From Escherichia coli (GTDB taxonomy: Bacteria; Pseudomonadota; Gammaproteobacteria; Enterobacterales; Enterobacteriaceae): 64,000 bases of DNA. The DNA lies in the NCBI RefSeq assembly GCF_024223415.1, contig NZ_CP100500.1; one strand, written 5' to 3'. Below, piece after piece: positions 2,155 through 23,771 of this stretch (positions are counted from its first letter, which is position 1; each line of letters begins with the position of its first letter). A model generated the notes under the pieces. That model had not been told where the DNA came from and did no database searches. It saw only the letters and a list, made by a program, of their open reading frames with translations. The position numbers and the translations under genes were made by a program.

Positions 2155-2200
2155 ATATTTTGATTCTTTGTAAAAGGTTATCACATATCGCAAAAGAGGT

Positions 2201-2515
2201 ATGCAGATGAGTAAGACGAATGTTTCAAGCTCCGGCAGTCGCATCCTCCGGGTACTCAAAGCGCTGCGCGGTCATGCCCTGAACGGTATTTCCAATGGTG
2301 AACTGGCGGCAGCACTGCACGAGTCACCGGCAAACATCAACCGGGCACTCAACACCCTCATTGAAGAAGGACTGGCCCTGAAACTGGAAAACGGGCGTTT
2401 CGCACCGGGCATCCAGTTGCTGCAGATCGCCATGGCCCACAGTAACGAGATGGCACGTGCACAGGATCGCATTAACGAAATCAACCAACGTGTCATTTCA
2501 GGTAGTCGTTTGTAA
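2201..2515 (+). CDS. winged-helix (IclR N-terminal-like) DNA-binding protein, function unknown
   Basis: 104 aa; SRILRVLKAL...ISNGELAAAL...INRALNTLIEEGL pattern typical of a winged HTH. Confidence 0.45.
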   Translation: MQMSKTNVSSSGSRILRVLKALRGHALNGISNGELAAALHESPANINRALNTLIEEGLALKLENGRFAPGIQLLQIAMAHSNEMARAQDRINEINQRVISGSRL

Positions 2516-2525
2516 GGAGTAATCA

Positions 2526-3443: not shown

Positions 3444-3760
3444 TGAACACGGATAACACACAAAATATCCTGATGGACAGCCCGGAAGCACTGGGGCACG
3501 CACTGTGTAATCTGCTGCCGGAGATGGTGCAGGGTTTCCGCGTGGTGACACCTTCCGGTGAAATCTGCGTACCCGCACAGGAGGCGCATCCGTTTGTACT
3601 GACGATGGAAGTGATGCTGATGCAGCAGATAAGACGTCTGCAGCATCAGTCAGCATTGCGCCCGGCAGTTGCGCCGCAACCGGTAAATAACGTGGTGAAA
3701 ACCTGCGATGGCGAAACACTGTACGACCTCGCCAGAAAAATTGCCGCCAGAATCGGATAA
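3443..3760 (+). CDS. hypothetical protein (105 aa)
   Basis: start overlaps upstream stop (ATGA-type coupling); no motif recognised. Confidence 0.35.
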   Translation: MNTDNTQNILMDSPEALGHALCNLLPEMVQGFRVVTPSGEICVPAQEAHPFVLTMEVMLMQQIRRLQHQSALRPAVAPQPVNNVVKTCDGETLYDLARKIAARIG

Positions 3761-3775
3761 CAGGGAAGACAAGCT

Positions 3776-5545: not shown

Positions 5546-5555
5546 GGAGGGAAAC

Positions 5556-6722
5556 ATGCTGGTACTGAAGCAGCAACTGAAAGAGGCCCGTATTCCACAG
5601 GCGGTGGCGGCGAGAGCTGTCGATGTTTCTGAGGCCACGCTGGCCCAGATTGTGAATCATAACGCGTGGCCCCGCACCAGCCCCGGAGAAGTGCGCCGGC
5701 GTCTTGCGTCCTGGCTGGAAAGTCAGGGGATTGATACAACGAAGAGTTTTGATGCTGTACAGGGCGCGGCCACGCCCCGTACAGCGAGTACCACAGATAA
5801 AACGAGCCTCAGTGAGGAAGAGAATATGTTACTCAAAAAACAGGTGTTATTTCCAGCAACCAAAAAAGCGTTTGGTCTTTTCCGTGACCCGTTCGCCGAC
5901 GAAGCCATGCAGGGTTCTGATGATGTGTTCACCACCCCGGACATTCGCTACGTGCGTGAGGCGCTGTACCAGACAGCCCGTCATGGTGGGTTTATGGCCG
6001 TCATCGGTGAGTCCGGTGCGGGTAAATCCACGCTGCGCCGCGACCTGACTGAACGTATTAACCGCGAGAATGCGCCGGTAATTGTTATCGAGCCATACAT
6101 CATTGCCATGGAAGACAACGATGTGAAAGGGAAAACCCTGAAGGCTGCAGCGATTGCCGAAGCCATTATCAGTACCATCGCACCACTGGAAAGCATCAGA
6201 CGCAGTCAGGACGCCCGCTTTCGCCAGTTGCATCGCGTCCTGAAAGGCAGCAGCCAGGCGGGGTTCAGCCACGTTCTGGTGATTGAGGAGGCCCACAGTC
6301 TGCCCATTCCGACACTGAAACACCTCAAACGCTTTTTTGAGCTGGAGTCCGGTTTCAAAAAACTGCTGTCCATCGTGCTGATTGGCCAGCCGGAACTGGC
6401 GACAAAACTGTCTGAACGCAATATGGAAGTCCGTGAAGTCGTTCAGCGCTGTGAGGTGGTCGAACTTCTGCCTCTGGACAATAACCTTGAAGAATTTCTG
6501 ACGTTCAAACTGCAACGGGCCGGTAAACAACTGACGGACATTATGGACGCCAGCGCAGTGGATGCCATACGTGCCCGCCTGAGCAATCCGGGAAGTCATC
6601 GTAAAAATATGGTCAGCCTGCTGTATCCGCTGGCCGTCAGTAACCTGGTAATAGCCGCCATGAATCTGGCCGCTGAAATCGGGGTTCCACAGGTCAACGC
6701 TGACGTTGTCAAAGGAGTTTAA
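5556..6722 (+). CDS. MuB-like AAA+ ATPase (transposition target-DNA activator)
   Basis: Walker A GESGAGKST, Walker B-like VLVIEEAH, N-terminal HTH; start set at ATG 5556 with GAGGAGG RBS (track ORF begins 5529). Confidence 0.8.
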   Translation: MLVLKQQLKEARIPQAVAARAVDVSEATLAQIVNHNAWPRTSPGEVRRRLASWLESQGIDTTKSFDAVQGAATPRTASTTDKTSLSEEENMLLKKQVLFPATKKAFGLFRDPFADEAMQGSDDVFTTPDIRYVREALYQTARHGGFMAVIGESGAGKSTLRRDLTERINRENAPVIVIEPYIIAMEDNDVKGKTLKAAAIAEAIISTIAPLESIRRSQDARFRQLHRVLKGSSQAGFSHVLVIEEAHSLPIPTLKHLKRFFELESGFKKLLSIVLIGQPELATKLSERNMEVREVVQRCEVVELLPLDNNLEEFLTFKLQRAGKQLTDIMDASAVDAIRARLSNPGSHRKNMVSLLYPLAVSNLVIAAMNLAAEIGVPQVNADVVKGV

Positions 6723-6724
6723 TA

Positions 6725-6994
6725 ATGAAATCCACCACAGGTATCAACCAGCAAATCAGCAAAGTGCAGTCAGCCATTATGGCGCTTAAGGCGACGAACA
6801 CGGATGTACAAAGCATCACCATCAGGGGTAACAAACCTGTCATCCGCGTTTCCCGGAGTGCGCATTGCATGCGCATGCTTGAGCAGGGAAAGGCCTGTTA
6901 TCTGTATACCGGACATGACCACAGGGGATATTTCCGTCAGGGCGTTTTCGAACTGCACGGCTGTCGCGTCGTGTGGCCGGAATCTTTGTGGTAA
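6725..6994 (+). CDS. hypothetical early-region protein (89 aa)
   Basis: AAGGAG RBS; no motif recognised. Confidence 0.45.
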   Translation: MKSTTGINQQISKVQSAIMALKATNTDVQSITIRGNKPVIRVSRSAHCMRMLEQGKACYLYTGHDHRGYFRQGVFELHGCRVVWPESLW

Positions 6995-7021
6995 TCAGCA
7001 CAACCGGAGAAATCATAAAAT

Positions 7022-7552
7022 ATGGCAAAAAGTACAAAAGGGGCAAAACGTATCAAGGCCGCAGCGGCACTCTGGGTACCAGGGACACGCGAAGAGGTCA
7101 TTGAGGGAATCAGACTACTCGGTGACGCACAACGTGAACTGGTCAGGGCTGAAACAGAAATGAATGACGCCATTGGCGATATCACCGCACGTTATGCCCC
7201 GCTCACCGAGAGCCTGAAAAAACGCATGGCCGAACTGCAGTCCGGTATTCAGACATGGTGTGAGGCACACCGTGATGAACTGACCGGCAACGGGAAGGTG
7301 AAGTTCGCTAACCTCACCACCGGCGAGGTGCAGTGGCGAAACCGTCCGCCATCAGTCAGTATCCGTGGGGCGGATAATGTTATTGAATTACTGAGACGTC
7401 TGGGGCTTGAGCGCTTTATTCGTGTAAAAGAGGAAATAAATAAAGACGCTATCCTGAATGAAAAAGAGGCCGTGAAAAATATTCCCGGTATTTCCATTAA
7501 AAGCGACATTGAGGATTTTTCAATAATTCCTTTTGAGCAGGATGTGCAGTAA
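7022..7552 (+). CDS. gam: Gam-like host-nuclease inhibitor (Mu Gam family, DNA-end binding)
   Basis: 176 aa; closely resembles phage Mu Gam along its whole length as recalled (N-terminal KRIK..AAA, central ETEMND, C-terminal EDFSIIPFEQ). Confidence 0.85.
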   Translation: MAKSTKGAKRIKAAAALWVPGTREEVIEGIRLLGDAQRELVRAETEMNDAIGDITARYAPLTESLKKRMAELQSGIQTWCEAHRDELTGNGKVKFANLTTGEVQWRNRPPSVSIRGADNVIELLRRLGLERFIRVKEEINKDAILNEKEAVKNIPGISIKSDIEDFSIIPFEQDVQ

Positions 7553-7649
7553 ACACACCACGTTAATTATTTAATAAAAACATTTTCTTTTTTATTCCGG
7601 CGTCAGCGCCGCGGGCTTCTGCACGCCGGAAACAGAGGAGAATTAAATC

Positions 7650-7844
7650 ATGATATTTAAATGTATTCAGTGCGAGAGGGATATAACAGCCCTGCGTTTT
7701 CACAGCGCCATCGCCGTGATGTCCGGTAAATACCACATCCCTGCGGTACGCGTCACCCTGGTCTGTCCGTACTGCAGCCAGCATTTTTCGGCAGACGTGC
7801 CCGTCATGGAATTCTCCCGCCCTGACAGGGAGGACGCGCAATGA
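7650..7844 (+). CDS. small zinc-ribbon protein (two CxxC pairs)
   Basis: CIQC ... CPYC; GAGGAG RBS. Confidence 0.45.
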   Translation: MIFKCIQCERDITALRFHSAIAVMSGKYHIPAVRVTLVCPYCSQHFSADVPVMEFSRPDREDAQ

Positions 7845-8113
7845 TTACCCCACAGGAAGCACGACAGCGCACCCGAACCCTTGTTGAACACTATGTCAAC
7901 GAGTGTGAATGTCGCGACCTCACCGATGTGAAGCACGTCCTGACGGCGCTAATCAGCATGGCCACACAGGCCATTGTGGCAACCAACGGAAAGGCGGCTG
8001 CCCTGCAGGTACTGATGAACACACTCACCCACACGGCAGAGCATGAGGTGCCGTACCGGATGGAAACCACTGCAGAAGGCGGCCTGCACATCACCGTCAG
8101 CCGGAAGCACTGA
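7841..8113 (+). CDS. hypothetical protein (90 aa)
   Basis: start overlaps upstream stop (ATGA); no motif recognised. Confidence 0.4.
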   Translation: MITPQEARQRTRTLVEHYVNECECRDLTDVKHVLTALISMATQAIVATNGKAAALQVLMNTLTHTAEHEVPYRMETTAEGGLHITVSRKH

Positions 8114-8122
8114 GGGTGCGGC

Positions 8123-8419
8123 ATGACACGAAACACCGAACTCACCCGCACCGCCCTCTACCGTCTGGCCCTGCAGCGTTTCGGGCCGGATGCACAGGCC
8201 CTGAAACTGACAGAAGAGGCCGCTGAACTGGCGGCCAGTGCTGCCCGCAACCTGAACGGACAGGGCAGCGAAAGTGACCTCGCGGCAGAGCTGGCAGACG
8301 TGGAAATCATGACAGAGCAACTGCGCCTTCAGGGGATGGACCGGCTGATTGACTTCCACAAACAGAAAAAACTGGAACGTCTGGCTGCACGACTGGGCGT
8401 GATTTACACGAACGAGTAA
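8123..8419 (+). CDS. MazG-like nucleotide pyrophosphohydrolase candidate (all-alpha NTP-PPase fold)
   Basis: 98 aa; EExxE ... ExxD acidic motif pair (EEAAELAAS ... AAELADVEIMTEQL) at MazG-like spacing. Confidence 0.5.
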   Translation: MTRNTELTRTALYRLALQRFGPDAQALKLTEEAAELAASAARNLNGQGSESDLAAELADVEIMTEQLRLQGMDRLIDFHKQKKLERLAARLGVIYTNE

Positions 8420-8433
8420 CCGGGAGGCATTCA

Positions 8434-8556
8434 ATGGCTGACATACTCAGGGAAATCACCGCATGGACACTGATTCTTACTGGTCTGGCGACATGCCTCA
8501 GTGCGGGAGCAGCCCTGGCTGCCCTGCTGATGCACATAACAACACAGTGGTTATGA
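8434..8556 (+). CDS. small hydrophobic peptide (40 aa, one predicted TM helix)
   Basis: not in supplied track (<60 aa); GGGAGG RBS about 7 nt upstream of ATG; hand-counted coordinates. Confidence 0.3.
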   Translation: MADILREITAWTLILTGLATCLSAGAALAALLMHITTQWL

Positions 8557-8645
8557 GAAAAGCTTAAAGCAGCATACAGCCTGAAAGAGCTGTCCGACGC
8601 TGTCCGGGCATGGAAACGGCAGAAAAATACCGGAGATACAGAACA

Positions 8646-9329
8646 ATGACAGACCAGAATAAACACATTGAGAAACTGAAAAAGTTGCTGGCGCTGGCCG
8701 CATCCGGCAACCCGCATGAGGCTGCTCTGGCACTGCGCCGCGCCCGTAAACTGATGGATGTTCACGGCATCACACATTCCGACATCGCCATGAGTGATAT
8801 TGATGAAACCATCAGTCACTACTGGCCGACAGGCAGCCTCCGTCCGCCGCGCTACATGCCAGGGCTGATGAACATCATCCGCGAGGCATTTGGTGTTAAC
8901 TCCATCATTCACCCCGGCACATATCCGGGTGTGGGGTTCTACGGCAAACGGGAACGGGCCGCACTGGCCGCGTACACCTGGGAAGTGCTGGCCCGTCAGC
9001 TGAAAAAGGCGCGTCAGCAGTATATCAGTGCACAGAACAAAAGAATAAAAACCGCCACCCGCACCAGCCGTGGAGACCAGTTTGCTGAAGGCTGGGTGCT
9101 GGCCGTTATCAGTGAAATACAGTCCTTCGCCCTGACCAATGACGAACGTGAACTGATGCAGCAGTGGCTGGAACATAAATACCCGCAGACGCAAACCACC
9201 AGGGCGCGTAAACCGGGAAGAAGTCGCAATGGCGACGCCTCGCGCTATGCGGGGTTTCGAGAAGGGCAGAACGTCAGACTGCACCGACCGGTCAGTGGGC
9301 GGGAACAGCAGAAACTGGAGGCCAGATGA
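8646..9329 (+). CDS. DUF2786-like phage protein
   Basis: track ORF 8610..9329 trimmed to Met with GGAGA RBS; N-terminal KLLALAASGNPHEAALALRRARKLM motif typical of this family. Confidence 0.5.
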   Translation: MTDQNKHIEKLKKLLALAASGNPHEAALALRRARKLMDVHGITHSDIAMSDIDETISHYWPTGSLRPPRYMPGLMNIIREAFGVNSIIHPGTYPGVGFYGKRERAALAAYTWEVLARQLKKARQQYISAQNKRIKTATRTSRGDQFAEGWVLAVISEIQSFALTNDERELMQQWLEHKYPQTQTTRARKPGRSRNGDASRYAGFREGQNVRLHRPVSGREQQKLEAR

Positions 9330-9556
9330 TGACGTTATCAGGTAACAGCCGGAAATTAAAAGCCTGCCGAATATCTGCCAGATACCTTTTTGCCCGCGCC
9401 TTTTTTAAGAACGTCAGGCCGGGGATCACAATTGGTGTTATTGCCGGACGCGAACAGGTTGAAAAATACATGTCAGGTGCATGGTGGAATAAAGACCCTG
9501 TCATTGCTGCCCGTAATATTCATATCAGTTGGGGAGATATTCAGAATGACTGCTGA
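9326..9556 (+). CDS. hypothetical protein (76 aa)
   Basis: GGAGG RBS; overlaps neighbours head-to-tail. Confidence 0.35.
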   Translation: MMTLSGNSRKLKACRISARYLFARAFFKNVRPGITIGVIAGREQVEKYMSGAWWNKDPVIAARNIHISWGDIQNDC

Positions 9557-9761
9557 ATCTGTTGTATGTGCCCTGTTCTGGTATTGTTTTGTCGGTTGGT
9601 GTACTGCTGAACTGCACCGCCGTTCAGGGTTTTATTCACGTTACAGTGGTGCCGGTTACTGGATTAGCTGGTCGGTGATGTTCCTGTGCTGGCCTGTGGC
9701 ATTTCCTTTATATGTCGATTATATCGGTGATGCAGGCAGAAGGAGCAACGATGATGACTAA
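9546..9761 (+). CDS. small Trp/Cys-rich membrane protein (71 aa)
   Basis: track ORF 9390..9761 trimmed to ATG 9546; hydrophobic. Confidence 0.35.
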   Translation: MTAESVVCALFWYCFVGWCTAELHRRSGFYSRYSGAGYWISWSVMFLCWPVAFPLYVDYIGDAGRRSNDDD

Positions 9762-10203
9762 ACAACGTCTTATCCAGCTTATCCATATTGCCCGTAATGA
9801 ACTGGGTATGGATGAAGACACCTACCGCCAGATGTTACAGGGGCTGACCGGTAAAGCCTCAACCAAAGGAATGGATACCACACAACTAAACTGCGTGCTG
9901 GAATCCATGAAAAGGAAAGGCTTTCGCGTTAAGCCTGCCGGAAAAGCCAGCTCCGGTTTACCGCTGGATAACCATCCGCAGTCCAGGAAAATCCGTGCGC
10001 TATGGCTTGAAATGGCTGCTGCCGGCATTGTTCGTGACCGTTCAGAAAATGCATTAGCGCGGTGGATCAAGCGGGAAACGGGCATCAGCGCCCTGCGCTG
10101 GCTCAATACTGAACAGGCAAGCAGTGTTATTGAGAAACTGAAGAAGTGGCAGCACAGAGCTGCGGGAGTAAAACATGAGCGACCTGAATCAGTTTCGAAG
10201 TAA
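9751..10203 (+). CDS. gemA: GemA-like protein (Mu GemA family)
   Basis: N-terminal KQRLIQLIHIARNELGMDEDTYRQML pattern; positioned directly upstream of mor as in Mu. Confidence 0.75.
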   Translation: MMTKQRLIQLIHIARNELGMDEDTYRQMLQGLTGKASTKGMDTTQLNCVLESMKRKGFRVKPAGKASSGLPLDNHPQSRKIRALWLEMAAAGIVRDRSENALARWIKRETGISALRWLNTEQASSVIEKLKKWQHRAAGVKHERPESVSK

Positions 10204-10573
10204 AGGGCCGGAACTCCTGGTGGAGCTGGCACAGCATACCTCTGAGACCGTTCGCGAGATTATTGATATTGAGCCCGCAATTGCCGACCAGATTGGTCAG
10301 GCCGTCGCGAACCGAATGATGCAGGTCTGGGGCGGGCAAAACGTTTATTTCCCGATGGGCATGGTATGGAAGGTCAGTCAGCGCGACCGGGAAATCTTCA
10401 GGGAGTTTAACGGACGCAACCACCACGAACTGGCCCGCAAGTTTGGTGTTTCGCTTCAGTGGGTCTACAGCGTGGTTAAGCGGGTCAGAAAAGAAGAACT
10501 GGATCGGATGCAGGGCAGGTTGTTTGATGAAGATCTGCCAGAGGAGACGAAAGACGTTAACAAATCCAGATAA
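10175..10573 (+). CDS. mor: Mor-family transcriptional activator (Mu middle operon regulator)
   Basis: 132 aa; C-terminal HTH REIFREFNGRNHHELARKFGVSLQWVYSVVKR typical of Mor/C family. Confidence 0.85.
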   Translation: MSDLNQFRSKGPELLVELAQHTSETVREIIDIEPAIADQIGQAVANRMMQVWGGQNVYFPMGMVWKVSQRDREIFREFNGRNHHELARKFGVSLQWVYSVVKRVRKEELDRMQGRLFDEDLPEETKDVNKSR

Positions 10574-10618
10574 TTCCTGCTTGTTAAAGTCCTTTCAAAA
10601 ATCTCCTTATTGTATAAA

Positions 10619-10649
10619 AGCACGGTAGACCCCGTACCGTGCTTTTTTT
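10619..10649 (+). terminator. rho-independent terminator downstream of mor
   Basis: GC-rich hairpin AGCACGGTA...TACCGTGCT followed by a run of 7 T. Confidence 0.5.
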
Positions 10650-10687
10650 ATGCTCTCTCTTTAGTATTCAGGATGCAGGGAGAAAAT

Positions 10688-11320
10688 ATGTTTGACGTTT
10701 CGTTGTTAAATCTGCCATGGGCAACACTGGTGACCCTGACCAGTGGCTATATTGGGTATTTTATTGCGAATGTGGGACTGAAGGATCACCACAAGCCCAT
10801 TGAGGTGACTTTTTCTTCGCTGATTTTTGGCCTGACAGCAATGATGGCTTACCAGGCTGTTATGTGGGCAGGTCTGAATGCCTGGCTGGCAACACCACCA
10901 GCACTTCTGTGTGCCGTTACATGCGGTGCGTGGTGGCGCAGGTACGGTCGCAAATGGATGTACAGATTACTGTGGAATAATGATATTTCATGGTCTGACG
11001 ATACCAGCTCAGCATGGCAGGCAATGTTTGATCAAACAGGCTTCAGCGTTACCGAGGTCAGAGTGATTCTTCGCGATGGTTCCGGTATGATGTCACGGCT
11101 GCCAGGGAACTTTGAACAGTGGCCTAACGGTCCGTTTACCCTGGGGAATAAAGGCGATATGGTTCTTTACGTCACGCACAGCAGCCCTTCAGGCAGTAAC
11201 GAATGGGAAGAGTATAAAGGCGTGGTTGATAAGTACTGGGGAGCTCTGGCAACCTATATTCCAGCAGATCAGATTGCCAGAGTGGAGATCAGGCGCGTTC
11301 GTGCAACGAACGATGAATGA
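10688..11320 (+). CDS. membrane protein (210 aa), N-terminal TM helices plus soluble C-terminal domain
   Basis: track ORF 10610..11320 trimmed to ATG 10688 (GGGAGAA RBS) because the upstream part overlaps the mor terminator. Confidence 0.5.
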   Translation: MFDVSLLNLPWATLVTLTSGYIGYFIANVGLKDHHKPIEVTFSSLIFGLTAMMAYQAVMWAGLNAWLATPPALLCAVTCGAWWRRYGRKWMYRLLWNNDISWSDDTSSAWQAMFDQTGFSVTEVRVILRDGSGMMSRLPGNFEQWPNGPFTLGNKGDMVLYVTHSSPSGSNEWEEYKGVVDKYWGALATYIPADQIARVEIRRVRATNDE

Positions 11321-11670
11321 TGTTTATTTTTTCCCTGGGGCAGGGGCTGCCGGCATAGTGGTTTTATTGGCAGAGGAAGACGATTCTCCTTTTCTACCGG
11401 AATCGCGCTCGAACGTCACGATGTGCTTGCTTTTGGGATTTTCTGAGTAATCCAGGCTATCATGCTTATTGTTTTGAGTAGTCATTGGAATCATCCTTTT
11501 TGTTGCGGGTCATGTTTCAGCAAACTCGATTCTAAGTTGCCAGGAAGGATGATTTCAATGCCCGACTTATCTATCGTATAGCGGAAAAGAATTTCAGTTC
11601 TGTTCACCAGAACCCATGTTAACCCACTCCAATTCGTTATTTATCTCACGGATCCCCCTTCATTTATCTC

Positions 11671-12012
11671 ATGTCTGATCAGGTGCGTAAGCTCTCTGGC
11701 GGCAACCAGCAGAAAGTTATCCTCGCGCGCTGCATGGCGCTCAATCCACGGGTGTTGATTGTCGATGAGCCGACGCGTGGCATCGACGTTGGAACCAAAT
11801 CGGAAGTGCACCAGGTGTTGTTTGATATGGCGAAAAAGGGCGTGGCGGTGATCGTGATCTCCTCCGATCTGCTTGAAGTGATGGCGGTGTCTGACCGGAT
11901 CATCACCCTTAGTGAAGGCCGGTTAACTGGCGAGATCCACGGTGACGACGCTAACGAAGAACGGCTGATGACGATGATGGCTATCAACCACAACGCCCTG
12001 AACGCGGCATAA
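11671..12012 (+). pseudogene. 5'-truncated sugar ABC transporter ATP-binding protein (C-terminal ~113 aa only)
   Basis: LSGGNQQK signature, Walker B LIVDEPTRGIDV; the N-terminal ~390 aa expected for a RbsA-like two-domain ATPase are missing. Confidence 0.8.
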
Positions 12013-12023
12013 CGGAGTTTCTC

Positions 12024-13052
12024 ATGACGCAGATGATTCCTAAAACGCAGGTCCCGGTAAAACGCGTCGGACGCATCGATCCCATTGCCTTCTTCGAGCG
12101 CTTCGGGGTACTGATTTTCATGATCCTGCTGCTGATCTTCTTTCAGTCGCAGAACAGTAATTTTTTCTCTGAACGCAATATTTTCAACATCCTGACCGAA
12201 GTCTCCATCTACGGGATCATGGCCGTGGGGATGACCTTCGTCATTCTGACCGCTGGGATCGACCTCTCCGTGGGCTCTATTCTGGCAGTGTGCGCCATGA
12301 CAGCGGCGTACGTGATCAAAGGCGACAATTTCACCACAGTCGATCCGAACGCTTGGGGCGGTATGAGCTGGCTGATTGGGCTGGGGATTTGTCTGACCAT
12401 GGGTACAGCGATTGGCTTCCTGCACGGTCTGGGCGTCACTCGCCTGCGCCTACCACCGTTCATCGTCACCCTTGGCGGGATGACCATCTGGCGTGGTCTG
12501 ACGCTCGTGATTAACGACGGTGCGCCGATTGCCGGCTTCGATCAGGGTTATCGCTGGTGGGGACGAGGGGAATTGCTCGGCATCTCCATTCCGATCTGGA
12601 TCTTCGCCATCGTTGCCATTGGTGGTTATCTGGCACTGCATAAAACCCGTTGGGGGCGCTTCGTCTATGCCATCGGTGGCAACCCGGAGGCGGCACGTCT
12701 GGCTGGGGTAAACGTGAAGCGTGTGCTGGTTAGCGTCTATGTGCTGATTGGCTGTCTGGCGGGGCTGGCGGGCTTCATCCTGAGCGCTCGTCTGGGGAGC
12801 GCTGAGGCGGTTGCCGGGATCTCCTTTGAGCTGCGTGTTATTGCCTCGGTGGTTATTGGCGGCACGTCGTTGATGGGGGGATATGGGCGCATCGGCGGCA
12901 CTATCATCGGCTCCATCATCATGGGCATTCTGATTAATGGCCTGGTACTGATGAACGTCTCGGCCTACTACCAGCAAATTATCACCGGATTAATTATCGT
13001 TCTGGCGGTGGCATTCGACACCTATGCCAAGAGCCGTCGCGGCGCACTGTGA
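12024..13052 (+). CDS. sugar ABC transporter permease (RbsC-like)
   Basis: 342 aa polytopic membrane protein downstream of the ATPase fragment. Confidence 0.8.
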   Translation: MTQMIPKTQVPVKRVGRIDPIAFFERFGVLIFMILLLIFFQSQNSNFFSERNIFNILTEVSIYGIMAVGMTFVILTAGIDLSVGSILAVCAMTAAYVIKGDNFTTVDPNAWGGMSWLIGLGICLTMGTAIGFLHGLGVTRLRLPPFIVTLGGMTIWRGLTLVINDGAPIAGFDQGYRWWGRGELLGISIPIWIFAIVAIGGYLALHKTRWGRFVYAIGGNPEAARLAGVNVKRVLVSVYVLIGCLAGLAGFILSARLGSAEAVAGISFELRVIASVVIGGTSLMGGYGRIGGTIIGSIIMGILINGLVLMNVSAYYQQIITGLIIVLAVAFDTYAKSRRGAL

Positions 13053-13060
13053 GGATCACG

Positions 13061-14194
13061 ATGAAAGAGGTTCGTATTGGATTGATTGGCACCGGGTATA
13101 TTGGCAAGGCGCATGCCATTGCCTATGCCCAGGCACCGACGGTGTTCAATCTGCGCGGCAAACTGGTGCGCGAGATGGTGGCTGAGGTGAACCCGGCGCT
13201 GGCGGCAGAACGCGCGCAGGCGTTTGGCTTCAATCGCTCAACCGGAGACTGGCGGGTGCTCGTGGCCGACCCGGCCATTGATGTGGTGGATATTTGCTCC
13301 CCTAACCATCTTCACAAAGAGATGGCGCTGGAGGCGATCCGCCACGGCAAGCACGTCTATTCGGAAAAGCCGCTGGCACTGAATGCCCACGACGCGCGTG
13401 AGATGGTCGACGCTGCGAAGCGGGCAGGGGTGAAAACGCTGGTGGGTTTCAATTACATGAAAAACCCGACGGCACAGTTGGCGAAAGAGATTATTGCGCG
13501 CGGCGAAATTGGTGAGGTGATCCACTTCTACGGAACCCACAACGAAGACTATATGGCCGACCCGCTTTCCCCTATTCACTGGCACTGTTTTAAAGAGACC
13601 GCCGGACTGGGGGCTCTGGGTGACTTGGCGGCACATATCGTCAATATGGCCCAGTATCTGGTGGGAGAGATTGAGCAGGTCTGTGGCGATCTGAAAATTG
13701 TGGTGCCGGCACGTCCGGCAAAGGCCGGATCGTCGGAAATGGTCACCGTGGAAAATGAAGATCAGGCCCACGCGATGGTGCGCTTTGCGGGCGGGGCGCA
13801 GGGCGTCATTGAAACTTCCCGCGTCGCCTGCGGCCGCAAGATGGGGCTGTCATATGTCATTACTGGTACCAAAGGAGCGATCAGTTTTACCCAAGAGCGG
13901 ATGGCAGAGATAAAGCTCTATCTACATGATGATCCGGTGAACCGTCAGGGGTTCCGGACACTGTTGGTCGGTCCGGCACACCCGGATTACGGCGCGTTTT
14001 GCATGGGCGCAGGTCATGGTATCGGCTTTAACGATCAAAAAACGGTGGAAGTGCGTGATCTGGTAGACGGCATTGCCACCGACGCACCGATGTGGCCGGA
14101 CTTCGAAGAGGGCTGGAAGGTCTCGCGCGTGCTGGATGCCATCGCACTCTCACACCAGCAGGGCCTCTGGCTGAACGTGAATGACATTGTCTGA
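13061..14194 (+). CDS. Gfo/Idh/MocA-family NAD(P)-dependent oxidoreductase (inositol 2-dehydrogenase-like)
   Basis: N-terminal Rossmann motif IGLIGTGYIGKAH; clustered with iol genes. Confidence 0.75.
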   Translation: MKEVRIGLIGTGYIGKAHAIAYAQAPTVFNLRGKLVREMVAEVNPALAAERAQAFGFNRSTGDWRVLVADPAIDVVDICSPNHLHKEMALEAIRHGKHVYSEKPLALNAHDAREMVDAAKRAGVKTLVGFNYMKNPTAQLAKEIIARGEIGEVIHFYGTHNEDYMADPLSPIHWHCFKETAGLGALGDLAAHIVNMAQYLVGEIEQVCGDLKIVVPARPAKAGSSEMVTVENEDQAHAMVRFAGGAQGVIETSRVACGRKMGLSYVITGTKGAISFTQERMAEIKLYLHDDPVNRQGFRTLLVGPAHPDYGAFCMGAGHGIGFNDQKTVEVRDLVDGIATDAPMWPDFEEGWKVSRVLDAIALSHQQGLWLNVNDIV

Positions 14195-14206
14195 AGAGGG
14201 TTCAAC

Positions 14207-16111
14207 GTGGAAAAGCAGTTTGATGTGATATGCATGGGCCGCGTGGCGGTAGACCTCTACAGCCAGCAAATTGGTGCCCGCCTGGAGGATGTGTCGAGCT
14301 TCGCCAAATATCTCGGCGGCTCGTCCGGCAACGTGGCGTACGGTACCGCGCGTCAGGGCTTACGCTCGTCAATGCTGGCGCGCGTTGGCGATGAACATAT
14401 GGGGCGCTTCCTGCGGGAAGAGTTAAACCAGGTGGGCTGCGATACCAGCCATCTGATCACCGATAAAGAACGCCTTACGGCGCTGGTGCTACTCGGCATT
14501 AAAGACCGGGACACCTTTCCTCTGATTTTTTATCGCGATAACTGCGCGGATATGGCGATTACTGCCAGCGATGTGGACGAAAGCTACATTGCCTCCGCAC
14601 GGTGTATTGCCATCACCGGGACTCACCTTTCTCACCCGCAGACCCGCGAGGCGGTGCTGACGGCGCTGAATTACGCCCGCCGTCACGGCGTGCGCACGGT
14701 GCTGGACATCGACTACCGTCCGGTGCTGTGGGGACTAACCTCTCTAGGAGACGGCGAAACGCGTTTTATCGTTGCCGAACAGGTTACCCGTGAACTTCAG
14801 GAGGTGCTACACCTTTTCGACGTCGTTGTCGGCACCGAAGAGGAGTTTCACATTGCGGGGGGCAGCACCGATACGTTGCAGGCGCTGGCGCAGGTGCGCC
14901 ACGTCAGCAAGGCGACACTGGTTTGCAAGCGCGGCGCGCTGGGCTGTTCGGTGTATACCGATGCCATTCCACCTCGGCTGGATGACGGTCTGACGGTGAC
15001 CGGCGTGCGTGTGGAGGTGCTTAACGTCCTTGGCGCGGGAGATGCGTTTATGTCTGGCCTGCTGCGCGGTTACCTGAACGACGAGGGCTGGGAGCAGGCG
15101 TGCCGCTACGCCAACGCCTGTGGGGCGCTGGTGGTCTCGCGCCACGGCTGTGCACCGGCGATGCCGAGCAAAATTGAGCTGGATGATTACCTCTCCCGCG
15201 CCGCGCTCGTTCCGCGCCCGGACATTGACCCGCGTCTTAACCATCTGCACCGGGTGACCACCCGCCGCCGCGAATGGCCGGAGCTGTGCGTGATGGCGTT
15301 CGATCACCGCAGTCAACTGGAAGATATGGCGCTGCAGTGCGGCGCGTCGCTTAAGCGTATTCCGGCGCTGAAACAGCTGATCCTGCAGGCCAGCCGAGAG
15401 GCGGCAAGCTCTGCCGGGCTGGAGGGGAAAGCCGGCCTGCTGTGCGATGGCACCTTTGGTCAGGATGCGCTGAACGCCATTACCGGCGAAGGGTGGTGGA
15501 TTGGTCGTCCCATTGAACTGCCAGGCTCGCGTCCGCTGGAGATGGAGCACGGTAACATTGGTACCCAGCTTATCAGTTGGCCGCAGGAGCATGTGGTGAA
15601 GTGCCTGGTCTTTTTCCATCCGGAAGATGCCCACGGCTTGCGTCTGGAGCAGGAGCAGAAAATCGCCGAGGTGTACCACGCCTGCTGTCAGTCCGGACAT
15701 GAACTGCTGCTGGAGGTGATATTACCCGCCACTATGCCGCGCAGTGACGAACTTTATCTGCGTGCCATTTCCCGCTTCTACAACCTTGGCATTTACCCCG
15801 ACTGGTGGAAACTGCCGCCGCTCTCCGCCGAAGGCTGGACGGCACTGAGCGAGATTATCGCGCGCCGGGACCCGCACTGCCGCGGCGTGGTGATCCTCGG
15901 TCTGGATGCTCCGGCGGAACAGCTGCGTGCCGACTTCAAAGCTGCCGCGGGGCAGGCGCTGGTGAAAGGCTTCGCCGTGGGGCGCACGCTGTTTGGCGAT
16001 GCCTCCCGCGCATGGCTGAAACACGATATTGACGATGCGCAGCTGGTGGCGCGCATCCGGGACAACTACCTGCAGCTTATCGCCTGGTGGCGCGAGCGCG
16101 GACACGCATAA
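14207..16111 (+). CDS. iolC: 5-dehydro-2-deoxygluconokinase (PfkB kinase fused to C-terminal aldolase-like domain)
   Basis: 634 aa; GTG start with GAAGAGGG RBS; PfkB motif GAGDAF; long C-terminal extension as in enterobacterial IolC. Confidence 0.75.
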   Translation: MEKQFDVICMGRVAVDLYSQQIGARLEDVSSFAKYLGGSSGNVAYGTARQGLRSSMLARVGDEHMGRFLREELNQVGCDTSHLITDKERLTALVLLGIKDRDTFPLIFYRDNCADMAITASDVDESYIASARCIAITGTHLSHPQTREAVLTALNYARRHGVRTVLDIDYRPVLWGLTSLGDGETRFIVAEQVTRELQEVLHLFDVVVGTEEEFHIAGGSTDTLQALAQVRHVSKATLVCKRGALGCSVYTDAIPPRLDDGLTVTGVRVEVLNVLGAGDAFMSGLLRGYLNDEGWEQACRYANACGALVVSRHGCAPAMPSKIELDDYLSRAALVPRPDIDPRLNHLHRVTTRRREWPELCVMAFDHRSQLEDMALQCGASLKRIPALKQLILQASREAASSAGLEGKAGLLCDGTFGQDALNAITGEGWWIGRPIELPGSRPLEMEHGNIGTQLISWPQEHVVKCLVFFHPEDAHGLRLEQEQKIAEVYHACCQSGHELLLEVILPATMPRSDELYLRAISRFYNLGIYPDWWKLPPLSAEGWTALSEIIARRDPHCRGVVILGLDAPAEQLRADFKAAAGQALVKGFAVGRTLFGDASRAWLKHDIDDAQLVARIRDNYLQLIAWWRERGHA

Positions 16112-17013
16112 TGGAGACGACAATGAGTGTACAACTGGGCATCAACCCGCTGACGTGGACGAACGATGATCTGCCTTCACTGGGCGCGGAGACATCTCTG
16201 GAGACCTGCCTGAGTGAAGGGAAAGAGGCCGGTTTTGCCGGCTTCGAACTGGGCAATAAATTCCCGAGAGAAGCGCGCCTGCTCGGCCCCATTTTGCAGC
16301 GCCACGACCTGCAGTTGGTCTCCGGCTGGTATTCCGGCCGCCTGTTGGAACGCAGTGTAGAGGACGAGATTGCTGCTGTGCAGTCGCATCTGACGCTGCT
16401 GCGAGAGCTGGGTGCAAAAGTACTGGTTTTTGCGGAAGTGAGTGGCTGCATTCACGGTGAGCAGCAGACGCCGGTTCACCTGCGCCCACGTTTCCCGCAG
16501 GAATGCTGGAAAGAGTATGGTGAGAAACTCACCGTGTTCGCCCGCTATACGCAGCAACAGGGGGTACAGATTGCTTACCACCATCATATGGGCACGGTGA
16601 TTGAGTCCGCTCAAGACGTGGACAACCTGATGCTCCACACGGGTGAGGAGGTTGGTTTACTGCTGGATACTGGCCACCTGACCTTTGCCGGGGCCGATCC
16701 GCTGGCGGTGGCACAGCGATGGGCATCGCGCATCAATCATGTTCACTGCAAAGATGTGCGCGCCGACGTGCTGGCGGACGTCAAAAACCGTAAAACCAGC
16801 TTCCTCGACGCGGTGCTGAGCGGCGTGTTTACCGTGCCGGGTGACGGCTGCGTGGATTATCCGCCGATTATGCAACTGCTGAAAACGCAGGATTATCACG
16901 GTTGGCTGGTGGTGGAGGCTGAACAGGACCCGGCGATCGCCCATCCGCTGACCTACGCCCGTCTGGGATATAACAATCTGAGCCGCCTGGCGCGCGACGC
17001 CGGGCTTATCTGA
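16111..17013 (+). CDS. iolE: sugar-phosphate isomerase/epimerase TIM-barrel protein (inosose dehydratase-like)
   Basis: start overlaps iolC stop (TAATG); N-terminal LGINPLTWTNDDLPSLG motif resembles IolE. Confidence 0.65.
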   Translation: METTMSVQLGINPLTWTNDDLPSLGAETSLETCLSEGKEAGFAGFELGNKFPREARLLGPILQRHDLQLVSGWYSGRLLERSVEDEIAAVQSHLTLLRELGAKVLVFAEVSGCIHGEQQTPVHLRPRFPQECWKEYGEKLTVFARYTQQQGVQIAYHHHMGTVIESAQDVDNLMLHTGEEVGLLLDTGHLTFAGADPLAVAQRWASRINHVHCKDVRADVLADVKNRKTSFLDAVLSGVFTVPGDGCVDYPPIMQLLKTQDYHGWLVVEAEQDPAIAHPLTYARLGYNNLSRLARDAGLI

Positions 17014-17022
17014 GGAGGTGAC

Positions 17023-17844
17023 ATGTCACGTCTGTTATCACGCTGGCAACAGCCGAACGCTGAGGGGCGGACTCAGTCTGTCACGCCGGAAAGCGCCGGA
17101 TGGGGATATGTTGGCTTTGAGGCCTATGAACTTGAGGAAGGGCAGCAACTGACGCTGCCCGCTGTCAGTGAAGAGCGCTGTCTGGTGCTGGTGGCCGGGC
17201 GCGCTTTCATCAGCACTCCTTCTGCACAGTTTATTGATATCGGGGAGCGGATGAGCCCGTTCGAGCGCATCAAACCTTGGGCGGTTTACGTCACCCCGCA
17301 GGAGGCAGTGCAGGTGAAGGCGCTGACGAAACTGGAGCTGGCAGTCTGTACCGCTCCGGGAAAAGGGACATACCCGACGCGGTTGATTGCACCTCAGGAT
17401 ATCGATGGCGAAGCGCGCGGTAACGGCCACAACCAGCGTTATGTGCATAATATTTTGCCGGAAGACAAGCCCGCTGACAGCCTGCTGGTCGTCGAGGTCT
17501 GGACCAACGAAGGCTGTACCAGTTCGTACCCGAGCCATAAACACGATACGAATAACCCGCCTCAGGAGAGCTATCTGGAGGAGACCTATTACCATCGCCT
17601 CAACCCGGAACAGGGGTTCTGCATGCAGCGGGTGTATACCGATGACCGCACACTTGATGAATGTATGGCGGTCTATAACCGTGACGTGGTCATGGTGCCG
17701 AAAGGGTACCACCCGGTGGCGACGATGGCCGGGTATGACAGTTATTACCTTAACGTGATGGCCGGACCAGTACGTAAATGGATATTCACCTGGGAAAAGG
17801 AACACTCATGGATAAACACAGAGTATTCTGCCATTTCTTTATAA
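17023..17844 (+). CDS. iolB: 5-deoxy-glucuronate isomerase-like protein
   Basis: 273 aa; family assigned from memory and from position after iolC/iolE. Confidence 0.6.
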   Translation: MSRLLSRWQQPNAEGRTQSVTPESAGWGYVGFEAYELEEGQQLTLPAVSEERCLVLVAGRAFISTPSAQFIDIGERMSPFERIKPWAVYVTPQEAVQVKALTKLELAVCTAPGKGTYPTRLIAPQDIDGEARGNGHNQRYVHNILPEDKPADSLLVVEVWTNEGCTSSYPSHKHDTNNPPQESYLEETYYHRLNPEQGFCMQRVYTDDRTLDECMAVYNRDVVMVPKGYHPVATMAGYDSYYLNVMAGPVRKWIFTWEKEHSWINTEYSAISL

Positions 17845-17866
17845 ACTGAGTACCTAAGCTAAAAAA

Positions 17867-17885
17867 GGGGAATGACTCCCCTTTT
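17867..17885 (+). terminator. rho-independent terminator after the iol genes
   Basis: GGGGA-loop-TCCCC hairpin flanked by A-run and T-run. Confidence 0.45.
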
Positions 17886-18588
17886 GTATAATATGACTCG
17901 ACAATGTTATTTCAAAGTCTGAGTGATGATTTTTCTCTCAGGCAGTATGTTCCTCAATAAGGATGAGAATGTATTCTGTTCATTGGCATATGCATTTATA
18001 TTCTAATGAGCTGAATTTTATAAAGGTTGTGGCTATTCTGGAGTATAAATATTTTTTTTCATTAGACATGAAAGTCTATATGATGGTGTATTAATATTTT
18101 TAGCAATTATGAACGGTTTGTCATGAACCAGTGACCAATTCGTTATGGTGGTGTGCGGTTATATGGTACCTGCTTATGGTGTTATGTTTTTGTCACGTTT
18201 TTGCTGGGGGGTAACATATGTATTGTTTATTTTATATGGTTTATTAAAAAGCTATGAACTCTTTTCAGAGTAATCTCTCACAGTTTTTTTTAATGTTTTA
18301 AAGTTGGTAGTGGTTTGTTATTTTATTTAACTATGTGTTCTTGAAAAAGAACAATGTTTTAAGTGTTGGTTTTTTATCCTTATGATTTTTTAAATGAACT
18401 ATTCAACAATTTACGCTGTGCTGTCCTACAGTTAAAGAGCGTTAATGTAATATCAAATGTAATTATTACGGACAGGCTGAAATCTGGTTGTGTACATCAG
18501 TTGGTGCAAAAAGGCTTATCAAAGTACTGAAATAATAGTAAGTACAATAATAATGATGAATATTGCTACATGGAGATTGGATTTGCCC

Positions 18589-19494
18589 CTATATTTCCAG
18601 ACACCTGTTATCACTTAACCCATTACTGGCTTGCTGCCGTAGATATTCCCGTGGCGAGCGATAACCCAGTGCACTATGCGGATGCCATTCGTTATAATGC
18701 TCGAACGCCTCTGCAAGGTTCTTTGCTGCCGTTAACCCGTCTGGTTTGGGCATGACACTGATGTAGTCACGCTTTATCGTTTTCACGAAGCTCTCTGCTA
18801 TGCCGTTACTCTCCGGACTCCGCACCGCCGTGCTCTTCGGTTCAAGCCCCAACATCCGGGCAAACTGCCGTGTTTCATTAGCCCGGTAGCATGAACCATT
18901 ATCCGTCAGCCACTCTACTGGAGACGCCGGAAGCTCGTTGCCGAAGCGGCGTTCCACCGCTCCTGGCATGACGTCCTGTACTGTTTCACTGTTGAAGCCG
19001 CCCGTAGTGACCGCCCAGTGCAGTGCCTCACGGTCACAGCAGTCCAGCGCGAACGTGACTCGCAGTTTTTCTCCGTTATCACAGCGGAACTCGAACCCGT
19101 CAGAGCACCATCGCTGATTACTTTCTTTCACAGCCACTCTGCCTGTATGTGCCCGTTTCGATGGCGGTACAGCAGGTTTTCGCTCAAGCAACAGCGCATT
19201 CTGGCGCATGATCCGGTAAACACGTTTGGCATTGATCGCAGGCATACCATCAAGTTCGGCCTGTCTGCGAAGCAGCGCCCATACCCGACGATAACCATAC
19301 GTGGGCAGCTCTCCGATAACATGGTGTATACGGAGAAGCACATCCGTATCATCAGTGTGACGACTGCGGCGGCCATCCATCCAGTCATCGGTTCGTCTGA
19401 GAATGACGTGCAACTGCGCACGCGACACCCGGAGACAACGGCTGACTAAGCTTACTCCCCATCCCCGGGCAATAAGGGCGCGTGCGCTATCCAC
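18589..19494 (-). CDS. insD: IS2 transposase ORFB (InsD)
   Basis: 301 aa DDE transposase, IS3 family. Confidence 0.9.
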
Positions 19495-19817
19495 TTTTTT
19501 GCCCGTCCATATTCAACGGCTTCTTTGAGGAGTTCATTTTCCATCGTTTTCTTGCCGAGCAGGCGCTGGAGTTCTTTAATCTGCTTCATGGCGGCAGCAA
19601 GTTCAGAGGCAGGAACAACCTGTTCTCCGGCGGCGACAGCAGTAAGACTTCCTTCCTGGTATTGCTTACGCCAGAGAAATAACTGGCTGGCTGCTACACC
19701 ATGTTGCCGGGCAACGAGGGAGACCGTCATCCCCGGTTCAAAGCTCTGCTGAACAATTGCGATCTTTTCCTGTGTGGTAAGCCGTCTGCGTTTCTCCGGT
19801 CCTAAGACATCAATCAT
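19452..19817 (-). CDS. insC: IS2 ORFA (InsC)
   Basis: track ORF trimmed to [12 protein letters not shown] start; 121 aa HTH protein. Confidence 0.85.
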
Positions 19818-20030
19818 CTGCTCTCCAATGACTAGTCTAAAAACTAGTATTAAGACTATCACTTAAATAAGTGATACTGGTTGTCTGGAGATTCAGGGGG
19901 CCAGTCTAGAGATATAAAGAGCGTCTAGCTCCGGATATATCTTTGACACTACGACAGTACTTGCAAAACGGGGTTGGTAATGCTGCCAACTTACTGATTT
20001 AGTGTATGATGGTGATTTTAAGGTGCTTGC

Positions 20031-20306
20031 GTGGCTTCCATTTCCATCAGATGTCCTTCCTGCTCCGCTACTGAAGGCGTGGTGCGTAACGGCAAAAGCA
20101 CTGCCGGACATCAGCGCTATCTCTGCTCTCATTGCCGTAAAACATGGCAACTACAGTTCACTTACACCGCCTCTCAGCCCGGTACGCACCAGAAAATCAT
20201 TGATATGGCCATGAATGGCGTCGGATGTCGCGCCAGTGCACGCATTATGGGCGTTGGCCTCAACACGGTTTTACGTCACTTAAAAAACTCAGGCCGCAGT
20301 CGGTAA
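20031..20306 (+). CDS. insA: IS1 InsA
   Basis: 91 aa, GTG start, CPSC...CSHC zinc finger. Confidence 0.9.
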
Positions 20307-20728
20307 CCTCGCGCATACAACCGGGCAGTGATGTGATTGTCTGCGCTGAAATGGACGAACAGTGGGGCTACGTCGGTGCTAAATCACGTCAGCGCTGGCT
20401 GTTTTACGCGTATGACAGGATACGGAGGACGGTTATGGCGCACGTATTCGGTGAACGCACTCTGGCCACACTGGAGCGTCTTCTGAGCCTGCTGTCGGCC
20501 TTTGACGTGGTGATATGGATGACGGATGGCTGGCCACTGTATGAATCCCGCCTGAAGGGAAAGCTGCACGTAATCAGCAAGCGATATACGCAGCGAATTG
20601 AGCGGCATAACCTGAATCTGAGGCAGCACCTGGCACGGCTGGGACGGAAGTCGCTGTCGTTCTCAAAATCGGTGGAGCTGCATGACAAAGTCATCGGGCA
20701 TTATCTGAACATAAAACACTATCAATAA
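20225..20728 (+). CDS. insB: IS1 InsB (expressed as InsAB' by frameshift)
   Basis: 167 aa; matches IS1 InsB. Confidence 0.9.
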
Positions 20729-20745
20729 GTTGGAGTCATTACCAG

Positions 20746-22032: not shown

Positions 22033-22166
22033 CGTTCCTGTTTACGCCGTTACATTTGTGGCGGCGGATGATACCTGTTTTATGATTATTCAGAAAAATG
22101 TATTTACCTGTCACGGCATGTTCAGCGAGCGGCGCCGGACAGAAATATCGCTTTTACTCAATTATT

Positions 22167-23771
22167 ATGAAAATTAATCTTCCATTCATACACTGGCCAC
22201 GGATTAGCAATGATAAGCGCCTCGTGTTATCAGTGGTTGTCTTTATCCTTTTTAATCTCCTTGTATCCTCAGGAGCGCATCTGATTTACCGGATATTATT
22301 CTTTATCCTGGCGCTTCTTATTATTAAGGCAATGAAATCGCTTACGTTGCGTTTGATTCTTGCCTTCCCGTTCACATTACTGACTGCTGCAGATATCAGT
22401 ATCAGCCTGTATTCATGGTGTACATTTGGCACAACATTTAATGATGGTTTTGCAATCAGTATCCTTCAGACAGATCCTGATGAAGTAATAAGAATGTTCA
22501 GGATGTATGTTGTTTATGTTATCGCATTTATTATCCTCTTTTTATTGTTCTTCTGTTCAGCAATAAATAAAACGTCCTCATTGCCATCGGAAAAGGTCAC
22601 GGTAATTACATTTTTATTGTTAATTACAGTAACGTTATATTCTTCCTTCCAGTTTGCGTTGAAGAAACAGTATCAAATAAATGAAGTTGATCCTTACATA
22701 GTCGCTTCCCGGTTTGCCACATATACCTCTTTCTTTAATCTGAACTATTTTGCACTGGCCGCAAAGGAGCATCAGAGATTAATGACGATTGCTGATACCA
22801 TACCTCACTACGATCTGGTGATTACGGATAACAACACTGACGTATTTGTTCTGGTGATTGGTGAATCTGCAAGGACTGATAACATGTCCATTTACGGGTA
22901 TTCGCGCCCTACCACACCAGAGCTTCAGAAACAGAAATCACGACTGAAACTGTTCACTCAGGCAATCAGCGGGGCACCTTATACCGCTCTTGCGGTACCG
23001 CTGGCATTATCTGCTGATACCGTGCTGCATCATGATGTTCGCCGTTACCCCGATAATATTATCAACATGGCGAATCAGGCGGGGTTCGATACCTGGTGGC
23101 TCAGTGCGCAGTCCGCTTTCCGACAGAACGGAACGGCTGTGGCCAGTATCGCCATGCGGGCCAGAAACAGAATTTATGTCAGAGGCTATGATGAATTACT
23201 GCTCCCACACCTGGCTGAAGCACTGAACAGTAATCCGGGGAGCAGGAAACTGATTGTTCTGCATCTGACGGGCAGCCATGAGCCAGTCTGCAGTAACTGG
23301 CCCAGAGATAAAGCCGTGTTTAAACCGCTGGATACAGAAGAAGTCTGCTACGATAATTCCATTCATTATACCGACAGTTTGTTGGGACAGGTTTTCACCA
23401 TGCTGGAAACGCGTCAGGCATCCGTCATGTATTTTTCAGATCATGGCCTGGAGTATGACCCGACAAAAGAGCATGCCTATTTTCATGGCGGAATAAAACC
23501 CAGCCAGCAGGCTTATCATGTTCCGATGTTTATCTGGTACAGCCCGGCACTGGGAGAGCATGTCGATCGCCAGACGGTGAACAGCGTTTTTTCCACTGCG
23601 TATAATGATTATCTGATTAATGCATGGATGGGCGTAACCAGACCGGCTCAACCGAAAACGCCGGAGGAGGTGATTACCCGCTGGCAGGGGAAATCCGTGG
23701 TTTTTGATGCCAGTCATAACGTGTTTGATTACAAAGTATTACGAAAGAACTTTAATGAACTCCAGGAATAA
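22167..23771 (+). CDS. phosphoethanolamine transferase-like membrane protein (EptA/OpgE-type sulfatase domain)
   Basis: about 5 N-terminal TM helices plus sulfatase-like domain (VIGESARTDNMSIYGYSRPTTP, LHLTGSHEP); start chosen at MKINLPF, alternative 22098. Confidence 0.7.
   Translation: MKINLPFIHWPRISNDKRLVLSVVVFILFNLLVSSGAHLIYRILFFILALLIIKAMKSLTLRLILAFPFTLLTAADISISLYSWCTFGTTFNDGFAISILQTDPDEVIRMFRMYVVYVIAFIILFLLFFCSAINKTSSLPSEKVTVITFLLLITVTLYSSFQFALKKQYQINEVDPYIVASRFATYTSFFNLNYFALAAKEHQRLMTIADTIPHYDLVITDNNTDVFVLVIGESARTDNMSIYGYSRPTTPELQKQKSRLKLFTQAISGAPYTALAVPLALSADTVLHHDVRRYPDNIINMANQAGFDTWWLSAQSAFRQNGTAVASIAMRARNRIYVRGYDELLLPHLAEALNSNPGSRKLIVLHLTGSHEPVCSNWPRDKAVFKPLDTEEVCYDNSIHYTDSLLGQVFTMLETRQASVMYFSDHGLEYDPTKEHAYFHGGIKPSQQAYHVPMFIWYSPALGEHVDRQTVNSVFSTAYNDYLINAWMGVTRPAQPKTPEEVITRWQGKSVVFDASHNVFDYKVLRKNFNELQE

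Follow-up and report, generated by a model that had tools for sequence, protein, structure and literature searches.

A Mu-like prophage as the probable cause of a seemingly incomplete inositol cluster in Escherichia coli

Why does a compact set of inositol-catabolism genes stand next to an ATP-binding cassette (ABC) transporter that is clearly broken, and where is the rest of the pathway? This question is raised by a stretch of 64,000 nucleotides from Escherichia coli (contig NZ_CP100500.1 of assembly GCF_024223415.1), here called the window, in which six tightly packed plus-strand open reading frames (ORFs) were listed between positions 11671 and 17885. An earlier reading, made from the sequence alone, had described an iolC-like kinase/aldolase fusion, an inosose dehydratase, an isomerase and a Gfo/Idh/MocA dehydrogenase in a block rich in guanine and cytosine (GC), beside a transporter that had lost its binding protein and most of its ATPase. 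It considered the pathway to be probably incomplete. According to our analysis, this block is the downstream part of an iol island that is known from few E. coli strains, and it was very probably split from its upstream half by a prophage of about 37.4 kb in the ATPase gene. The cluster looks incomplete largely because the window starts inside this 37-kb insertion.

The region contains the following features. Family calls for the ORF products come from an NCBIfam profile search with curated cut-offs.

11671-12012, plus strand: chimeric ORF of 113 amino acids (aa), consisting of a start from the prophage end and the C-terminus of a CUT2 ATPase
12024-13052, plus strand: ABC transporter permease (IatP-like, BPD_transp_2), 342 aa, intact; Pfam and NCBIfam matches
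13061-14194, plus strand: Gfo/Idh/MocA dehydrogenase, 377 aa, intact; nearest structure PDB 5YA8
14207-16111, plus strand: bifunctional IolC/IolJ, 634 aa, intact; NF047869, with Pfam domains PfkB and DUF2090
16123-17013, plus strand: iolE, myo-inosose-2 dehydratase, 296 aa, intact; TIGR04379
17023-17844, plus strand: iolB, 5-deoxy-glucuronate isomerase, 273 aa, intact; TIGR04378
17863-17885, plus strand: terminator-like hairpin AAAAGGGG-AATGACT-CCCCTTTT, read directly from the sequence 3′ of iolB, where it would close the operon

The start of the Gfo/Idh/MocA gene was taken as 13061 (the mechanical ORF begins at the GTG at 13049) and that of iolE as 16123 (mechanical ORF from 16087). The IolC/IolJ fusion reached 942 bits against NF047869 (cut-off 600), IolE 429 bits against TIGR04379 (cut-off 290) and IolB 320 bits against TIGR04378 (cut-off 205), and the enzymes named in the sequence-only reading are indeed present. 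Judged by its domains, the 634-aa fusion is a PfkB 5-dehydro-2-deoxygluconokinase joined to a DUF2090 5-dehydro-2-deoxyphosphogluconate aldolase. For the 377-aa Gfo/Idh/MocA protein the nearest solved structure is scyllo-inositol dehydrogenase 5YA8 (E=4e-97), and its 366 bits against the levoglucosan dehydrogenase model stay below the cut-off of 650. An assignment as IolG was ruled out, as the IolG model gave only 124 bits (cut-off 355); a scyllo-inositol dehydrogenase is the closest match. The GC content is 0.56-0.63 over 12-17 kb, as compared to about 0.50 in most of the remaining window.

The earlier reading was also right that the window encodes none of the other iol functions. When the left half of the intact island was used as query in tblastn and blastn searches, IolR, IolA, IolD, IolG and the binding protein were not found anywhere in the 64 kb. 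The sole tblastn match to IolG is the Gfo/Idh/MocA paralogue, with 26% identity. Displacement of the missing iol genes to another part of the window by inversion is ruled out, as none of them occurs there. Measured against a complete myo-inositol cluster, the window has IolE, IolB and IolC with IolJ, and lacks IolG, IolD and IolA.

That the transporter is broken was confirmed, and the point of breakage could be defined. The 113-aa ORF aligns only to profile positions of about 400-505 of the CUT2 sugar ABC ATPases in NCBIfam, which have about 500 residues, and the only part of the ABC ATPase gene in the window are its last 109 codons, coding for residues 407-515. In this remnant only the second nucleotide-binding domain is represented, by its signature motif LSGGNQQK and its Walker B region; its Walker A motif and the whole of the first domain are missing. 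From the components expected of a CUT2 inositol transporter, the permease is found in the window, and a full-length ATPase of about 515 aa and an adjacent binding-protein gene are not. Alignment with the intact ATPase gene places the breakpoint exactly at 11681/11682. Host DNA restarts at 11682, the third base of ATPase codon 406, while the first three codons, starting with the ATG at 11671, and the first two bases of the fourth (MSDQ) belong to the phage end and not to the host. The limits 11671-17885 previously given for the cluster thus hold only at the right end, which coincides with the T-run of the hairpin; positions 11671-11681 are phage sequence and the host begins at 11682.

The chimeric 113-aa ORF is not confined to the window. 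It is recorded on six contigs, among them the draft assembly GCA_900482235.1 (protein SRA13390.1) and the Logan assembly of sequencing run SRR19977217, and over 6.9 kb the junction sequence of these two shows 100% identity to the window. The ATPase gene has also been inactivated independently in E. coli 33F4 (NZ_CM147849.1; L021 10784-12331), a close relative of the window's island, where it carries an internal stop at Q208.

The DNA to the left of the breakpoint had not been recognised as a Mu-like prophage in the earlier reading. Its genes, assigned via Pfam and PHROG, are those of a transposable phage.

1-11681, plus strand: right-hand 11.7 kb of a BcepMu-type transposable prophage of about 37.4 kb, which extends past the left edge of the window
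644-1408: prophage gene for a Dam methylase
1527-1865, minus strand: repressor-like helix-turn-helix protein
3776-5545: prophage gene for an rve/DDE transposase
5556-6722: prophage gene for an AAA+ transposition protein
7022-7552: prophage gene for Gam
9712-10203: prophage gene for GemA
10175-10573: prophage gene for Mor
10688-11320: prophage gene for a membrane protein without known function

The prophage was compared with the 5426 complete RefSeq genomes of E. coli. Window positions 1-8500 show 99.5% identity to prophages in 492 of these genomes, and the prophage family as a whole is present in 643-810 of them at many sites, in some with 2-4 copies per genome. The final 3.2 kb of the prophage end at the identical base in hundreds of E. 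coli genomes, with unrelated host genes beyond. The sequences which abut the terminus differ from genome to genome (yhfW-like, tdh, kefF, tnaB, yfiB, yejF and others). The right terminus ...ATGTCTGATCA (...TGATCA) stops at 11681 in the window; the same ...TGATCA is followed by a yhfW-like gene in strain PK8275 and by tnaB in strain LH10-b-1, whereas the window matches the intact ATPase gene from 11682 onward. These two copies could be read at both ends. They start with TGATGCG..., have TG...CA termini and are flanked by 6-bp target duplications (GGATAT and GTTATC). The left end of the window's own copy lies beyond the window.

The full copy in PK8275 measures 37,426 bp; its tail genes are P2-like, its head genes Mu-like, and both sets are on the opposite strand. 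In this family, the early genes are directed towards the right end and the late genes are encoded on the opposite strand; a full copy is contained in L003 and L006. Among sequenced phages, Escherichia phage PhiKM (PQ738613.1) comes closest, with 95.7% identity. TG...CA ends combined with an rve-core transposase are hallmarks of BcepMu relatives (PMC2628397). The prophage shares with BcepMu-type phages and PhiKM the rve-core transposase and its AAA+ partner, the TG...CA termini and the Gam, GemA and Mor genes, as well as integration at many chromosomal sites and gene disruption upon lysogeny. It is thus an ordinary member of this group and differs only in its landing site. Hundreds of database proteins (P0004-P0032 among them) consist of an unrelated host N-terminus and a common 38-aa tail, DAPRDKCALSCAINGIHAAFHYLKKNYISGSVMTVPTG, which is encoded at the left end of the prophage (L006 6509-6625). 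Such chimeric proteins represent a ready catalogue of phage insertion sites.

On the host side of the breakpoint, the comparison with intact islands revealed no erosion. The locus is matched in 53 of the 5426 complete genomes, 46 times with at least 99% identity and seven times with 89% identity, the latter being copies of the whole island on E. coli plasmids of about 90-170 kb. The island is thus carried by about 1% of the complete genomes; in a published survey, less than 2% of the E. coli genomes had an iol cluster (PMC9430895). The intact island, an arrangement present in about 50 complete genomes, has 11 genes: a divergent iolR followed by iolA, iolD, iolG, the binding protein, the ATPase (515 aa), the permease, the Gfo/Idh/MocA dehydrogenase, iolC/J, iolE and iolB. 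In the intact E. coli islands (strain 11, NZ_CP195330.1; CE0026f, NZ_CP119000.1; TUM9803, NZ_CP135671.1), which share proteins and gene order with the window, the 515-aa ATPase has the binding-protein gene, iolG, iolD, iolA and iolR directly upstream, whereas in the lineage of the window the prophage ends at codon 406/407. CE0026f, the nearest relative, has two full iol islands (at about 1.10 Mb and 2.56 Mb, with 99.6% and 99.9% identity to the window), so that a second island may also exist elsewhere in the source genome. In strain 744 (NZ_CM132967.1, about 2.727 Mb) there is a deletion remnant which consists only of iolB, a partial iolE and 226 bp of iolR.

Region 11682-17844 has the gene order of the intact islands and 99.5-99.9% nucleotide identity to them, and its alignment with each of 24 intact islands is a single ungapped one with 6-33 mismatches. 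No frameshifts, stops or deletions are found in the 6.2 kb of the remaining cluster. CE0026f encodes identical versions of all five complete proteins; the permease differs from that of strain 11 by one residue (A15V). The Gfo/Idh/MocA protein is identical to WP_000665942.1 of intact islands, IolE to WP_000116047.1, IolB to WP_000088747.1 and IolC/J to the intact-island version. Compared to the 24 intact islands, the lineage has five private substitutions (about 0.8 per kb), of which four are synonymous and located in intact genes, while the fifth changes proline to leucine at 11873, within SSDLPEV of the orphan ATPase fragment. This pattern is compatible with purifying selection on the intact genes, the counts being far too small to infer selection.

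Judged by its relatives, the transporter of the island is specific for inositol. Its binding protein, as encoded in intact islands, has matches to 4IRX, a Caulobacter structure (E=8e-71), and to 4RXM (E=9e-136), and the ATPase is labelled by JGI as an inositol transport system ATP-binding protein. The 90%-identity cluster of the full-length ATPase (1992 members) includes sequences from Enterobacter and from Salmonella enterica subsp. diarizonae and salamae, which agrees with the high GC content of the block. We consider the island to be horizontally acquired and Enterobacter-like, with a minority of E. coli carrying it in the pheV genomic island.

Since the breakpoint coincides exactly with the prophage terminus and the adjoining genes are those of a transposable phage, the broken transporter is attributed to phage insertion into the ATPase gene, and a simple insertion very probably accounts for the broken cluster as a whole. 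A BcepMu-type phage would have integrated between codons 406 and 407 of the ATPase gene and would have left the genes to the right unchanged. The genes iolR, iolA, iolD, iolG and that of the binding protein, together with ATPase codons 1-408, would then be located at the far end of the prophage, behind a short target duplication. The left end of the prophage is expected at a distance of about 37.4 kb from 11681, about 25.7 kb beyond the left edge of the window. There, ATPase sequence ...CAGGAGGTGCG should adjoin the left end of the prophage, and the junction should read ...ATGGTCAACAGCACGCAGGAGGTGCG followed directly by TGATGCGCCGCGCGATAAATG..., with a GGTGCG duplication that matches 11682-11687. 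The chimeric product predicted for this junction has ATPase residues 1-408 followed by the 38-aa read-through DAPRDKCALSCAINGIHAAFHYLKKNYISGSVMTVPTG.

Such an insertion would destroy the only transporter of the island, as the intact island encodes no other one. The remnant lacks the first nucleotide-binding domain and the second Walker A motif and thus the ATPase fragment cannot be expected to power transport, which is very probably abolished. Caulobacter mutants in which only iatA is deleted no longer grow on myo-inositol (PMC2597717). In the intact island a gap of 284 bp separates iolD from iolG, while from iolG onward the gaps are only 8-51 bp, a spacing that points to one operon running from iolG to iolB. 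In this case, the five distal genes would be 37 kb away from their promoter and behind the rightward early operon of the phage, which is expected to be repressed in a lysogen. Probably they are no longer transcribed from the promoter in front of iolG. The alternative of an internal promoter that serves them was rejected, since a consensus scan between the phage end and the permease gene detected no plus-strand promoter and gave matches only at chance level.

If the upstream half is present and iolG to iolB are one operon, the strain is predicted to be inositol-negative despite its intact enzyme genes. With a second intact island elsewhere in the genome, the anatomy described here would hold and the inositol-negative prediction would fail. 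Mu-like phages rarely excise precisely, and for this reason the predicted state is probably not readily reversible. The earlier conclusion of an incomplete pathway is thus correct in that the pathway is probably non-functional in this strain, while the apparent shortage of genes results largely from the position of the window edge within the prophage. As the last rightward prophage genes are directed into the distal iol genes, the orphaned genes might still be expressed by read-through, under phage control or selectively kept; we regard this as improbable.

Several results weigh against a simple insertion with an inositol-negative phenotype. The left prophage-host junction has not been seen. 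Neither the left nor the right junction occurs in any of the 5426 complete genomes, and exact scans of the collections genome_contigs and viral_contigs for the right and left junction DNA were empty, so that the source genome must be outside these two collections. The predicted chimeric product is absent from protein records in exact look-ups, for which three N-terminal variants with a 6-bp duplication as well as 5-bp and 7-bp alternatives were used. In addition, the operon structure and the missing internal promoter rest only on gene spacing and on a scan at chance level. When the junction peptide or the complete chimera served as query in protein searches, no representative that spans both parts was retrieved, although chimera matches could be hidden in the ATPase cluster with its 1992 members. 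The binding protein and the rarer IolD variant of the closest relatives led only to intact islands among the 24 records with the longest contigs.

A missing left junction would also be expected if the upstream half had truly been lost or moved, either through an adjacent deletion or inversion by replicative transposition or through recombination between prophage copies. The multiple prophage copies in some E. coli genomes are substrates for such recombination, and deletion remnants of the island exist elsewhere, as in strain 744. However, the look-up returns only proteins that match exactly, and the 1.3 kb concerned should contain about one private substitution; as a single one would hide the junction, its absence is weak evidence. 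Simple insertion is, as established for Mu, the usual route by which transposable phages become lysogenic. Moreover, the draft contig extends 34.5 kb leftward from the junction. This length agrees with a full-length prophage, as a short-read assembly is expected to stop at the invertible tail-fibre segment, which lies about 2.9 kb inside the left end. We therefore consider it unlikely, though worth keeping in mind, that the upstream half is gone from its place.

The loss of genes from the cluster, as assumed in the sequence-only reading, corresponds to a piecemeal decay by pseudogenisation. It could be invoked because the window contains the pathway only in part and because the orphan ATPase fragment carries a private proline-to-leucine exchange, but this view is hardly tenable given five intact genes, whose proteins are identical to those of complete islands, and a single breakpoint that coincides with the terminus of a mobile element. 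A chimeric assembly, in which a prophage contig has been joined to an iol contig, might be suspected from the absence of the junction in complete RefSeq genomes. Such an artefact is very unlikely, as the identical junction recurs on six contigs, among which are those of an NCBI draft and of a Logan assembly from a separate sequencing run, and as the join sits at the exact biological terminus of the phage.

Insertion of the prophage into an intact island is thus an ordinary and already understood event, in which a transposable phage from a known family interrupts an accessory operon that is already annotated. It is one more case in which a Mu-like phage has acted as an insertional mutagen on an accessory metabolic island of E. 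coli. When the edge of a fixed window falls inside a prophage, an interrupted, intact operon can resemble a decayed pathway, which is of little import beyond annotation.

The island resembles the inositol module of Caulobacter crescentus and Sinorhizobium meliloti (PMC2597717), with which it shares idh/iolG, iolC, iolD, iolE, iolB, iolA and an RpiR-type iolR. As with IbpA-IatA-IatP in these species, its transporter is a CUT2 ABC transporter rather than the IolT of the major facilitator superfamily (MFS). In contrast to these species, all genes are contiguous on the pheV genomic island in E. coli, IolC is fused to a DUF2090 aldolase, there is an additional scyllo-inositol-dehydrogenase-like gene and, in the strain of the window, the ATPase is interrupted by a prophage. 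The same pathway is encoded on a horizontally acquired island in Salmonella Typhimurium (GEI4417/4436) and in the cluster of E. coli ED1a (PMC9430895). That type has the MFS transporter IolT, reiD, srfJ and duplicated iolC, iolD and iolG, whereas the island in the window is of the ABC-transporter type.

Downstream of iolB, the remainder of the pheV island could be annotated up to its anchor.

18578-19908, minus strand: IS2, 1331 bp, with NCBIfam matches to IS2 TnpA and TnpB
19976-20743, plus strand: IS1-family element, 768 bp, at which the similarity to the canonical island ends
27068-28282, minus strand: integrase of the pheV genomic island
28429-28504, minus strand: tRNA-Phe gene pheV, anchor of the iol-bearing genomic island

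IS2 lies in the spacer behind iolB, at a distance of 733 bp. It is a simple insertion, as the island sequence of strain 11 continues on both sides of it and overlaps by 5 bp, the length of the target duplication. Similarity to the canonical island ends at 19975/19976, the left end of the IS1-family element, with unrelated pheV-island DNA beyond. The core genes yqgA and speC follow after pheV. A stretch of low GC content (about 0.40) in the pheV island codes for a 557-aa phosphoethanolamine-transferase-like protein (22098-23771), which is EptA/CptA-like and scores far below all curated cut-offs, including those of all MCR models. An ORF of 307 aa without a family match (24452-25375, plus strand) is convergent with the gene for a dcm-type cytosine-5 DNA methyltransferase (25344-26468, minus strand) in DNA of 36-38% GC, and together (24452-26468) they may represent a restriction-modification pair.

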